Positions 1 through 3,000 of a stretch of 48,110 nt of DNA are shown in pieces. Source of the stretch: a virus (lineage: Duplodnaviria; Heunggongvirae; Uroviricota; Caudoviricetes); IMG/VR virus record IMGVR_UViG_2839594473_000007, one strand, 5' to 3'. A program made the position numbers. The first letter of the stretch is position 1. Each line of letters begins with the position of its first letter.

Positions 1-3000
1 ACCCGCAAACCACACATCCCTTTAAAACGCGTAACATACATTGCCTGCGTTTAACTTTCTTTGAACTCTTGCAGAAAAATGAGAATTCGTGAGTACGATC
101 ACTCAAAATCGCCTGGCAAAAATAAAATCACCCTATAAATGCACAAAAAACGGGCAAAACTACCTGGTTCGCAAAACTGCGTCTAAAGTTAAACCGGGAC
201 CTCGCGAGCAAGGGTGAGACGATGGCGCTTTACACAATTGGTGAAGTGGCGTTGCTTTGTGATATTAACCCTGTCACGTTACGCGCGTGACGCAACATTT
301 TTAAAAATCGACGAAGATCGTCCAGGAGCGCCGTTTTTCAAGGGTTGGATAGATGATTCGTTTACCATGTCGATGAACTTCGACGAATTTCGCCGATAAA
401 AAGTGTCCCATACATGCCCCATTGATGCCCCATAAACAATATCAGGAATTGACACTGGTTATCCATACAGATAAAAATAACACCTGTACATAACTACAGT
501 TACAGGAGGGTGTTATGCGTGTTGAGATCTGTATCGCTAAAGAAAAAATCACTAAAATGCCAAACGGTGCTGTGGATGCGTTAAAGGAAGAATTAACCCG
601 ACGCATCAGTAAACGTTATGACGATGTAGAGGTGATCGTAAAAGCCACCAGCAACGATGGCCTTTCTGTTACGCGCACCGCCGATAAAGATTCAGCTAAA
701 ACTTTTGTTCAGGAGACGCTGAAAGATACCTGGGAGTCTGCTGACGAGTGGTTTGTTCGCTAATAAACACGTAAATCGGTAACGGCTGGAAATCATTCAA
801 TACTCGCACTATCGAAAGTTCACCAGCCAACCGCGACACGCTCTTACATACGAAGTGCCGCGCTTTCCTTAATAATTTTTTAGCAGTACTGTGTAAATAA
901 TGAGCGACCTAATCCATGCATGACGCGTAGTGCCTATTGTGCATCTTTCTGCGTCTCTTTTTACTGGACCCAAGCCAATGATGCTGGCGATACCATTCCC
1001 GCCAGGCCCACTTACAACAGTAAAATTCGGAGCTCTGCCTTTACATACAATACAATCTACCTAACAAATATCCCCCGGACATTGCAACACAAAAACCGGA
1101 GCCGGACTCCGGTTTTGTGAAGCTGTCGGGTTACTTCATCCCGCCAATATTTTCCCACGTCCCGTCAGCACGCAGGATTTGCAGCGGTCTTACCACGCAC
1201 TGTATCTGCTTTTTATCCGCATCCAGTATCACCACCTGCGTGATTACCCTGTCCTGCTCCGGAATAATACCATTCTCATCGGACTCCAGGATGTCTGCCG
1301 GCCCCAGTCGCAGTTGTGCTGTAAGCGACTGCCCGTGTTCACGGCCATCATGCTTTCCGCAACCACACAGACGCTGCATAAGTTTTTTTAGTATATTCAT
1401 GTCATTCTCCTGTTCTGCCTGTATCACTGCCCACTTCATCCAGCCCCTTAACATCCTGCCACGGCCCGTCACCAAACCTGACCTGCAAATGCCGAAACAG
1501 CCCCTGAACCTGTGTGGCATCTTTGGGGTCAAGAAAGGTCAGTCCGGTGATGAGTGCGCCATCTGTATCCGGGAACCAGCCATTGCTGTTTGTCTCAATA
1601 ATGCTCGCCGGCCCCAGACGAAAACGGATTTGTGTCTCCCCCGGGTCGCCCTTCGGTCCCTGAGGTCCGGTTGCCCCCACCGGGCCAGCCGCACCTGTTT
1701 CTCCTTTCGGTCCCTGTGGGCCTGCCGGGCCTGCCGCACCGGTATCTCCCTTTGGACCCTGTGGACCTGCATTTCCCGTCAGACCGGTCTCTCCCCGCTC
1801 TCCCCTGTCACCTTTCGGCCCCTGCGGGCCTGCCGGACCAGCATCACCTGCCGGTCCCCGTTCGCCGGTTGCCCCGACAGGGCCGGTGTCACCGCGCTCT
1901 CCCTTATCACCCTTCGGCCCCTGAGGACCCGCGGGCCCCTGTTCCCCCTTTGGCCCGGGAGGTCCCACCACGGTGGGGATTCGGTTTACGGCCTCTTCCG
2001 CCGCTATCCTGCTTTGTTCCGCTGACTGTGCGCTTTCTGCTGACTCCCGGGCTTTTTCTGTTGCGGTCGTTGCATCCCTGGCTGCATTACCGGCTGCACT
2101 TTCTGCCGTCTTTCTTGACAATTCAGCTTCTGCTGCACTTTGTGATGACTCACTGGCTTTTTGAGCGGCCGCAGAAGCCGAGGACGAGGACGCATCCTCT
2201 GACTGCTTTGCAGCGGCTGCACTTTCTGCCGCCTGCCGGGCTGACTCCAATGCATCCCCTGCTGAAGTGTCAGCATTTGCCGCGCTCTCTTCTGCCTGAC
2301 TGGCTGATATGCCGGCATTCCTCGCGGACGTCTCCGCCTCTCCGGCATTCTTCTTCGCCTCCTCAGCGTGACGCGCCGCTTCTTCCACCATCAGTTCAAA
2401 ACGACGCAGTGCCTCCGGCCGGACGTCATCCTCCGACATGGCACCGAGAAAATCATTCAGCGTCCCCGGTTGAGAATCTTCATACACGGTGATGGTCCCG
2501 GCATGTGACGGCGGGAACCCTTCCACCAACAGAATAACGCTGTACTGACCGTACTCAACGTCCATGCTGTAACGACCGGCTTCATCCGGATTTTCAGAGG
2601 CCACCGTGTTCACCACCACCGTGGCGCTGTTACGTCTGGCTTTCAGTTGAATGGTGCAGTTCTCTACCGGTTTTCCTGTGCCGTCTTTCAGTACACCTGA
2701 AATCTTTACTGCCATATTCACCCCACAAAAAAGCCCGCCTGAACCGGCGGGCTGTCATAACACTGTGTTACCTGGCTAATCAGAATTTATAGCCGACACC
2801 CACGATGAAGCCGTCAGTGCGCCAGTCGCCACTGCCGGAGCCTTCATAAGCAATATCAATGGCCACGGATTCGGTCGGGTTAAACTGCACGCCAGCTCCC
2901 CACGCCAGAGACGTGTTGCTGTGGCGACCGTCATCACTTCCGGTCAGCACATCGTGCGTTTTCCCCTTGTTGTCAGTTACGCGGAGATAATCCCCGGAGA

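Follow-up and report, generated by a model that had tools for sequence, protein, structure and literature searches.

A single-gene dinI cargo unit with two putative LexA operators at the attR end of prophage Sp15 of Escherichia coli O157:H7

Location and organisation of the unit

The dinI unit at the attR end of prophage Sp15 (VT1-Sakai, Stx1) of E. coli O157:H7 is, judging from its sequence, a single-gene SOS moron with its own promoter and terminator. We think it probable that it combines a LexA-repressed promoter with a RecA-binding DinI paralogue that adds to the DinI dosage. This view is based on the anatomy of the unit, the homology of its product, the RecA-contact residues, purifying selection and the conservation of the operators. 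The promoter, the SOS box and the gene are already known from the GenBank annotation AP000400.1 (2000); the gene is real but ordinary, its annotation is correct, and it belongs to a common kind of SOS cargo. The practical outcome of the analysis is twofold: the promoter has two putative operators, not one, and a dinI deletion can be informative only once the redundancy has been eliminated.

The analysed window (48,110 nucleotides) derives from Sp15. The att core of the attR side, at 270..289, is a misc_recomb feature of AP000400.1; Sp15 interrupts yehV/mlrA there, and NC_002695.2 places the start of the prophage at window position 291. The dinI unit lies just inside the end marked by this core. 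Both the location at a prophage end and the description of the element as a toxin prophage, made in the first-pass annotation, are thus borne out, the latter by stx1A and stx1B, annotated at approximately 28.9-30.1 kb. The unit is situated between the minus-strand tail-fibre genes and att, in convergent orientation, and in related phages the same spot is occupied by nleC or an avirulence-protein gene. The promoter, the terminator hairpin (1088-1119) and a site flanked by structural genes on one side and the genome end on the other are the attributes of a moron.

The same anatomy, with its own promoter and terminator, the orientation opposite to that of the tail genes and the cargo position at the prophage end, would also suit a gene serving the host. 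The lysogen could gain from limited SOS mutagenesis or toxicity, e.g. under quinolones, and the prophage would be retained, with no role for the gene in the switch. Among the cargo genes of Citrobacter prophages, dinI has been classed under "fitness" (PMC6456863), and a prophage DinI-like gene has been discussed in relation to acquired genes and quinolone-resistance mutations (PMC10575684). However, the Citrobacter and quinolone associations are correlative only, no phenotype has been reported, and by sequence alone a benefit to the host is inseparable from the main explanation. We consider a pure host-fitness role possible, at well below even chances.

Candidate LexA operators

The putative strong sigma-70 promoter, also present in AP000400.1, was identified by a promoter scan on the plus strand. 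It consists of the -35 hexamer TTGACA (449..454) and the -10 region TAAAAAT (472..478), the latter invariant across an alignment of seven related promoters. The -10 region allows two readings, TAAAAA (spacer of 17 nt) and AAAAAT (spacer of 18 nt); with the latter, ending at 478, the promoter has 10 matches out of 12.

Two putative LexA operators, not one, overlap this promoter. Box 1, CACTGGTTATCCATACAGAT (453..472), has the core CTGG-N8-ACAG at 455-470 and fills the spacer between the -35 and -10 elements. Box 2, ACCTGTACATAACTACAGTT (482..501), has the core CTGT-N8-ACAG at 484-499 and is located just downstream of the -10 region, over the expected start of transcription. The boxes are 29 bp apart. 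The core of box 2, CTGTACATAACTACAG, is the SOS box of the first-pass annotation, where it was described as near-consensus and overlapping the promoter. The overlap is confirmed, by box 1 in the spacer as well as by box 2 at the start site, and the CTGT-N8-ACAG core is present; however, the full 20-mer matches the 20-nt LexA consensus in 14 positions only (13 of 20 in box 1), and the second operator at 453-472 had been missed. Matches to CTGT-N8-ACAG occur five times in the window, against 0.74 expected, and the one at 484-499 is the only one located in a promoter.

The annotations AP000400.1 and NC_002695.2 (gene H0001 / ECs_2939 of VT1-Sakai Sp15), identical in sequence to the window, mark the promoter (window 449-477) and "LexA protein, putative SOS box" (482-501), and label the gene "DNA-damage-inducible protein I, similar to E. 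coli K12 DinI". They contain one operator; box 1 is unmarked in the public records examined.

The boxes were scored with a palindromic LexA positional weight matrix and a heterology index, both trained on a set of 20 known E. coli LexA operators, not on a curated file. Boxes 1 and 2 are the two best matches in 48 kb, with 16.0 bits each, whereas the maximum scores of shuffled windows have their median at 12.2 and their 95th percentile at 15.5 bits. Compared with the 20 training operators (12.2-28.4 bits), both are at the weak end. The approximate heterology index equals 7.6 for box 2 and 9.4 for box 1, the range in the training set being 0.5-9.5. We rejected a further LexA-like half-site, the third, at 887-906: its 12.2 bits are no more than chance would give in a window this large.

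The mediocre quality of the boxes, both in consensus matches and in bits, and the CTGG half of box 1 instead of CTGT, are points against LexA control. The boxes might have arisen by chance, the gene being constitutive or silent: the scores barely exceed the 95th percentile of shuffled-window maxima, and a scan of the window for matches within three mismatches of the 20-nt consensus found none, so that neither box qualifies. However, the two best matches of 48 kb are neighbours in a single promoter, which precedes a homologue of an SOS gene; both positions are occupied by boxes in six related promoters, with conservation ending at the -35 element; and boxes of 25-26 bits are found at the same place in distant homologues. 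A chance origin is, in our opinion, scarcely credible.

The conservation is as follows. Both box positions are occupied in all six related promoters of the prophage-end type, the scores in five of the six being 21.5-23.6 bits at the position of box 1 and, again in five of six, 19.2-23.4 bits at that of box 2. Homology among these promoters starts exactly at the -35 element, and the upstream flanks are unrelated. The boxes of Sp15 are weaker than those of the paralogous prophage copies. In distant phage homologues of dinI (Klebsiella, Salmonella, Aeromonas, E. coli) a single box of 25-26 bits occupies the corresponding place with respect to the ATG, in seven of the eight homologues examined; Yersinia YeP3 has no box, as its dinI sits within an operon. 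A scan of contigs with the single protein gave only four close loci, and the diversity was sampled instead by tblastn of a phage collection. Stx-converting phages, identified by name, account for 18 of the 24 records of the Sp15-type promoter variant with weaker operators, and the variant with stronger operators is found mainly in other lambdoid phages.

By analogy, we infer that LexA binds this promoter and that Sp15 dinI is induced in the SOS response. In an undamaged cell, LexA dimers on box 1 in the spacer and box 2 at the start site would block RNA polymerase. DNA damage would produce filaments of RecA on single-stranded DNA, leading to self-cleavage of LexA and to transcription of dinI, which would be independent of the CI/Cro/Q circuit of the prophage. 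Literature searches by locus tag (ECs2939, Z3305) yielded nothing on expression of this copy. The text of an omics paper on EHEC treated with ciprofloxacin names only the chromosomal dinI, and there is no DinI entry in its text-form supplements.

The encoded protein

The dinI-like gene (ECs_2939 / H0001; 515..763, plus strand) encodes a putative RecA-filament-binding DinI paralogue of 82 amino acids. A candidate Shine-Dalgarno box GGAGG (505..509), predicted to make a strong ribosome-binding site, was read from the sequence 5 nt upstream of the ATG codon. The product matches the Pfam family DinI (PF06183) with E-value 1.2e-19 and 70.8 bits (cutoff 24.2), over positions 1-63 of the 63 of the profile. 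Residues 1-81 align end to end with residues 1-79 of the solved structures (PDB 1GHH/7YWA; E=1.1e-12), and thus the protein is single-domain and full-length relative to the solved DinI. The identity to E. coli DinI is 37 of 78 aligned residues (47%).

The match to PHROG 189, "RecA filament binding protein DinI" (4.1e-31), covers only columns 71-149 of this 151-column profile. Against the DinI equivalog model NF007893 of NCBIfam the protein scores 71.6 bits, below the cutoff of 111, whereas K-12 DinI scores 178.2. By this measure it is a paralogue, not an orthologue, of the chromosomal DinI, and its PGAP name, "DinI-like family protein", is in line with the sub-cutoff score.

Mutagenesis of DinI has demonstrated that residues L13, L21, E24, E69, W71, D76, W77 and F78 mediate binding to the RecA filament; of these, L13, L21, W71, W77 and F78 form a hydrophobic pocket and E24, E69 and D76 an acidic patch (PMC9926225). 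Their counterparts in the Sp15 protein are M15, L23, E26, D71, W73, E78, W79 and F80, respectively. All eight contacts are retained, five by identical residues and three by conservative substitutions, and the C-terminal helix TWESAD(D/E)WF is preserved. The dN/dS ratio of the coding region (0.03-0.26) indicates purifying selection. The domain matches and the contact residues agree with the earlier assignment of the gene to the DinI family, and the product is predicted to bind RecA filaments.

The end of the transcript and the downstream region

A hairpin CCGGAG..CTCCGG with A/U extensions (1088..1119) separates the plus-strand dinI unit from the tail-fibre genes, which run on the minus strand, approximately 325 nt beyond the dinI stop codon. 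Its RNA folds at -17.5 kcal/mol on the plus strand and -18.3 kcal/mol on the minus strand (z-scores -4.4 and -4.6), and none of 200 shuffled sequences was as stable. A scan for consensus terminators made no call at this hairpin. It is likely to be a bidirectional intrinsic terminator that forms the 3' end of the dinI transcript.

The only open reading frame downstream of dinI is H0002 (920-1120, 66 amino acids), assigned in AP000400.1 to the same unit as dinI. It has no Shine-Dalgarno box and no match in Pfam or PHROG, and it is missing from the RefSeq annotation of Sakai and the PGAP annotation of EDL933; we do not consider it a gene.

This region bears on the possibility that the LexA promoter formerly drove an antirepressor, as in the Gifsy operon dinI-gfoA/gftA-irsA or with Tum of phage 186, and that the unit is what remains of such an operon, with dinI as a leftover passenger. 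In distant homologues from nin regions, dinI is followed by a conserved ORF of about 80 amino acids (PHROG 340) and a NinB/STM1020-like gene, which is the Gifsy layout (PMC3121763), and the restriction of the PHROG 189 match to the last half of the profile fits the existence of Tum-like fusions in the family. However, a tblastn search of the whole window with four downstream ORFs from phages of the nin type, made for a Gifsy-type antirepressor, detected no homologue, the best E-value being 0.46, elsewhere in the window. The sole downstream ORF is the discarded H0002, the apparently cleavable CI of Sp15 (see below) needs no antirepressor, and the single-gene form is intact, widespread and under purifying selection. 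Such an origin is very improbable.

The 325 nt from the stop codon to the hairpin were also searched for a structured or small RNA, with a negative outcome: there was no credible Rfam match (the best, CssrB, had 22.6 bits against a gathering threshold of 76, on the opposite strand), and the z-score of the fold was only -1.9. A candidate hairpin at 826-885 was no better than shuffled sequences and was rejected. A literature search for EcOnc small RNAs near dinI found nothing relevant.

Possible role in prophage induction

The cI repressor gene of Sp15 (37113..37760, plus strand) encodes HTH_3/HTH_31 and Peptidase_S24 (3.1e-26) domains, and the translation contains the AG site (VQAGPF), the GHSM motif and the FKKY motif. 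With the peptidase domain and the AG, serine and lysine motifs in place, CI is by its motifs a RecA-cleavable repressor of the S24 type, in agreement with the first-pass annotation. It would be the downstream target of any effect of DinI on the co-protease activity of RecA. Sp15 is inducible by mitomycin (PMC2669165); the microarray in that study left out many near-identical lambdoid genes.

The Sp15 protein is expected to stabilise RecA filaments and to fill the site needed by UmuD and by repressors of the CI type. The most likely net effect would be an increased DinI dosage of the cell, with late SOS events (UmuD processing, CI cleavage) being restrained. However, DinI at physiological levels stabilises, rather than shuts off, RecA filaments (PMC9926225 and papers cited there), which makes it uncertain whether CI cleavage would be raised or lowered. 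That induction of Sp15 or Stx would be measurably affected is speculative.

The first-pass annotation suggested that the gene could tune the induction threshold of the toxin prophage. In this reading the prophage DinI would serve the phage as a brake or a timer of RecA-stimulated CI cleavage, determining the threshold or heterogeneity of this cleavage and hence the release of Stx1 and phage. This idea was already published for Stx2a phages in 2021 (PMC8456039). It is plausible because the Sp15 CI is apparently cleavable, and DinI and lambda CI compete for one and the same RecA-filament groove, to which both bind (PMC9926225). The prevalence of the weaker-operator promoter among Stx-converting phages and the purifying selection on the module are also in its favour. 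On the other hand, this association may only mirror the heavily sampled O157 lineage, and non-Stx prophages carry the module just as commonly; 35% of complete E. coli genomes have it. Moreover, the two O157:H7 genomes with listed counts contain five and six copies of the module, in addition to the chromosomal dinI, located in EDL933 (bioRxiv 10.1101/2022.08.08.503262); since each product would act in trans on all RecA, a phage-specific action is not expected. Finally, deletions of the Gifsy dinI homologues had no effect, although the Gifsy repressors are not cleaved (PMC3121763). We regard induction tuning by this gene as rather unlikely.

The same redundancy of prophage copies and chromosomal dinI, overlooked when deletion of the single gene was proposed in the first-pass annotation, would probably mask the effect of such a deletion.

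A more speculative extension, to which we give little credence, is that the prophage copies of dinI in EHEC jointly constitute a LexA-timed pool that fills the groove of the RecA filament and sets the amount of damage needed for cleavage of CI in Stx prophages. The weak-operator variant of Stx phages would then fire earlier, and induction of toxin phages would depend on dosage and strain. If the prophage copies do shift the threshold of CI cleavage, their number and operator variants could help to explain differences between strains in the release of Shiga toxin. These differences, in spontaneous as well as antibiotic-induced release, are a clinically relevant question.

Comparison with known systems

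Returning to the preferred reading, the LexA-controlled single-gene moron, a close known counterpart is the chromosomal DinI of K-12 (1GHH; RecA-DinI cryo-EM structure 7YWA), which has the same size, belongs to the same family and is controlled by LexA; in contrast, the Sp15 gene is prophage-borne, multi-copy and mobile. The chromosomal dinI of Salmonella has two LexA boxes, 19 and 42 bp from the ATG codon (PMC8072944), resembling the pair in Sp15.

The Salmonella prophages Gifsy-1, -2 and -3 encode DinI paralogues whose genes, as in Sp15, immediately follow a promoter that contains a LexA box. With one LexA box, these dinI homologues are induced 4.6-23-fold by nalidixic acid (PMC8072944), and the Gifsy-2 DinI protein accumulates after mitomycin C treatment (PMC3121763). 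The Gifsy genes are adjacent to the replication/nin region and have one strong box, whereas the Sp15 gene lies past the tail fibres, at the attR end, and has two weaker ones. Further, the Gifsy dinI is the first gene of a dinI-antirepressor-irsA operon (Lemire et al. 2011, PMC3121763), whereas the Sp15 unit appears to be monocistronic. Induction of the Gifsy prophages requires the dinI-antirepressor locus and is blocked by lexA3, and it is unchanged by non-polar deletion of the dinI homologues (PMC3121763). There, a small antirepressor triggers induction of a prophage with a non-cleavable repressor, whereas Sp15 has no antirepressor homologue and its CI is predicted to be cleavable. The Gifsy deletions are not decisive for Sp15, as the Gifsy repressors are not cleaved.

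The Tum protein of coliphage 186 is, like the Sp15 protein, the product of a phage gene with a DinI-family domain, and is repressed by LexA (PMC3121763). However, Tum has 146 amino acids and consists of an N-terminal antirepressor half and a DinI-like C-terminal half, whereas the Sp15 protein, with 82 amino acids, is the DinI domain alone.

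The locus and its annotation

Over its first 1400 bases the window matches many E. coli O157:H7 chromosomes, Sakai and EDL933 among them, at 100% identity, as it does the phage record AP000400.1 (VT1-Sakai). By Sakai coordinates the window spans Sp15, the Stx1 prophage inserted in yehV/mlrA, and is therefore a toxin prophage, as the first-pass annotation had it. The dinI-like gene was also rightly placed at the prophage end: AP000400.1 has the att core at 270-289, with the prophage beginning at 291, so that this gene is the outermost one at the attR end, beyond the minus-strand tail-fibre genes that converge with it. 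The 5' stub of yehV/mlrA, cut by the insertion at the att core, occupies 222-290 (ATG...MALYTIGEVALLCDINPVTLRA, then a stop codon), and 1-221 is the yehU(btsS)-yehV intergenic region. The window is identical to NC_002695.2 (Sakai RefSeq) to 16565. A one-base offset from about 16566, beginning at an annotated IS1203/IS629 boundary (e.g. cI at 37113 in the window and 37114 in Sakai), implies a 1-nt indel relative to NC_002695.2 or a sequence from another O157 strain.

AP000400.1 annotates a "putative promoter of H0001 and H0002 genes" at 449-477, a misc_binding feature "LexA protein, putative SOS box" at 482-501, and H0001 as "DNA-damage-inducible protein I, similar to E. coli K12 DinI". The gene is named ECs_2939, DinI, in RefSeq and "DinI-like family protein" by PGAP. 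Thus the observation of a dinI-like gene under a LexA box is a rediscovery of public annotation.

Promoter and candidate LexA operators

The ORF at 515-763 is preceded by a sigma-70-like promoter (TTGACA at 449-454, an 18-nt spacer, AAAAAT ending at 478) and by GGAGG 5 nt ahead of its ATG. The box at 482-501 (box 2) lies just 3' of the -10 hexamer and upstream of the ORF, in agreement with the proposed overlap with the promoter. It had been called a near-consensus SOS box. This is correct for the core, CTGTACATAACTACAG at 484-499, but not for the full 20-mer, which has 14/20 consensus positions; no site anywhere in the window matches the consensus LexA 20-mer with three or fewer mismatches.

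A palindromic position weight matrix was constructed from 20 E. coli LexA operators known from the literature. Its top two matches in the whole 48 kb are box 2 and box 1 (CACTGGTTATCCATACAGAT, 453-472), which occupies the -35/-10 spacer; both score 16.0 bits. When the window was shuffled 200 times, the best score per shuffle had a 95th percentile of 15.5 and a median of 12.2. The approximate heterology indices (HI) of the two boxes are 7.6 and 9.4, versus 0.5-9.5 in the training operators. Both are plausible candidate operators of modest strength.

Related end-of-prophage promoters were considered from two E. coli loci, one Shigella flexneri locus and phages PhiR12_2, mEp460, Stx2c_2409 and BP-4795. 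Homology among six related promoters begins exactly at the -35 hexamer, the flanks upstream being unrelated, and the -35 hexamer, box 1, the -10 hexamer and box 2 are kept in register in all six. In five of the six, the boxes are clearly stronger than those of Sp15 (19-23.6 bits, HI 2.7-6.0). A variant common to Sp15 and BP-4795 has lower scores, CTGG in box 1 and one nucleotide inserted ahead of box 2. Distant phage homologues (Klebsiella, Salmonella, Aeromonas, mEp237) have a single 25-26-bit box centred 25-29 nt ahead of the ATG. Such a pattern is expected of a functional operator, and seems hard to ascribe to chance.

In mEp460-type phages (mEp460 locus, 42-1164) the integrase gene, immediately upstream and in the same orientation, terminates inside the dinI promoter; thus in phages of this type the promoter-operator-dinI cassette has a different genomic neighbourhood from that in Sp15. 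This fits a mobile module with its left boundary at the -35 hexamer.

The DinI-like protein

The 82-aa product belongs to the DinI family, as had been claimed: it matches Pfam DinI (1.2e-19), and its full-length alignment to E. coli DinI (PDB 1GHH, 7YWA; E=1.1e-12) shows 37 identities in 78 aligned residues. Cryo-EM of RecA-DinI and mutagenesis identified a hydrophobic pocket (L13, L21, W71, W77, F78) and an acidic patch (E24, E69, D76) (PMC9926225). The Sp15 equivalents are M15, L23, W73, W79, F80 and E26, D71, E78, that is, five identical and three conservative positions. The dN/dS values of 0.03-0.26 among seven copies imply that selection maintains the protein. With the NCBIfam DinI equivalog it reaches 71.6 bits, under the cutoff of 111 (K-12 DinI, 178), and to judge from sequence it is a paralogue, not an orthologue, of chromosomal DinI.

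The BP-4795 protein (CDS 248-496) is 61% identical, with Arg replacing the tryptophan equivalent to RecA-contact W71. Its promoter is of the Sp15 type, but box 1 (186-205) ends in ACAA, not ACAG; this copy may be weakened or diverging. The DinI-like protein of Stx2c/Stx1a JNE-series phages (Stx2c_2409, from 678) repeats four residues in tandem (VDAL-VDAL) within its first helix, adjoining the residue equivalent to RecA-contact L21.

The downstream region

No convincing terminator was found right after the dinI stop codon, the candidate at 826-885 folding no better than shuffles. A strong hairpin at 1088-1119, with folding energies of -17.5 and -18.3 kcal/mol for its two strands (z about -4.5), separates dinI from the tail-fibre C-terminal gene (1131-1400, minus strand) and reads as a candidate bidirectional terminator. 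The 325 nt separating it from the dinI stop hold no supported gene, and neither Rfam nor folding gave evidence of a structured RNA there. H0002 (920-1120) was rejected as a gene: it lacks a ribosome-binding site and any family match, and has been dropped from current annotations. PGAP has a frameshifted pseudogene fragment at 1041-1129 (minus strand).

The non-coding stretch of about 290 nt 3' of dinI (764-1056; 833-1126 in the related locus L021) recurs with 97% conservation in many Stx1a, Stx2a and Stx2d phages. In related Stx phages it is followed by the convergent T3SS effector gene nleC, whereas Sp15 lacks nleC and the stretch joins the tail-fibre terminator directly. In BP-4795 the gene after dinI encodes an avirulence protein. 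Since relatives carry cargo genes at this position, moron is the best term for the unit.

Distribution

Of 5426 complete E. coli genomes, 1878 carry the 331-bp module (440-770), at up to eight copies each (the two O157:H7 genomes with listed counts have 5 and 6), and 133 phage records encode a homologue. The Sp15-type promoter with weaker boxes occurs in 24 phage records, 18 of them named Stx-converting, and the mEp460-type promoter with stronger boxes in 14, mostly not named Stx phages; however, one O157 sequencing series dominates the Stx phage set, so this association may only reflect lineage.

Possible role in induction

The structural premise of the first-pass interpretation is sound. The repressor was taken to be open to cleavage, and Sp15 CI, with HTH and Peptidase_S24 domains and the motifs VQAGPF, GHSM and FKKY, is indeed predicted to be of the self-cleaving type. 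Sp15 is mitomycin-inducible (PMC2669165). That its DinI-like protein sets the induction threshold is a hypothesis, already in print; a search of the available literature found no experiment on any Stx-phage dinI. The direction of an effect is uncertain, as DinI stabilises filaments at moderate levels. Any effect would be cell-wide, not Sp15-specific, because the protein acts in trans on all RecA, and with several prophage copies and chromosomal dinI a single deletion would be uninformative.

The feature exists, was read correctly and is an ordinary one: a DinI-paralogue moron under putative LexA control. It has been publicly annotated since 2000 and is common in E. coli prophages, and relatives were studied experimentally in Salmonella. 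The new observations are a second conserved putative operator in the promoter spacer, a weaker variant of the putative operators in the Sp15/Stx-phage lineage, and a dinI unit apparently lacking an antirepressor partner.

Comparison with the Gifsy prophages

In the Gifsy prophages of Salmonella, a LexA box is followed by a dinI homologue, a small antirepressor gene (gfoA/gftA) and irsA; induction, involving non-cleavable repressors, is triggered by the antirepressor, not DinI, and non-polar dinI deletions had no effect (PMC3121763). Distant phage homologues in the set examined have the same layout: dinI, an ORF of about 80 aa (PHROG 340) and a NinB/STM1020-like gene. Sp15 departs from it: no homologues of these small ORFs were found anywhere in the 48-kb window. 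A gene annotated "phage antirepressor" (ECs_2967, about 24122-24691, minus strand) lies in the late region between lysis genes, with no LexA-like box of note ahead of it (best nearby, 8.4 bits at 24905-24924).

The third-best match in the window, TACTGGATCAATCCACAGGA at 36349-36368 (minus strand; CTGG-N8-ACAG), scores 12.9 bits, no more than chance would give in 48 kb. It overlaps the ribosome-binding site of replication gene O, 6 nt upstream of that gene's start codon (ATG). The geometry is that of the Gifsy-1 replication gene STM14_3214, which has a reported LexA box 6 bp from the ATG and is induced 7.7-fold by nalidixic acid (PMC8072944).

In its probable mode of action the Sp15 locus resembles the first gene of the Gifsy operon, but it stands outside the antirepressor system.
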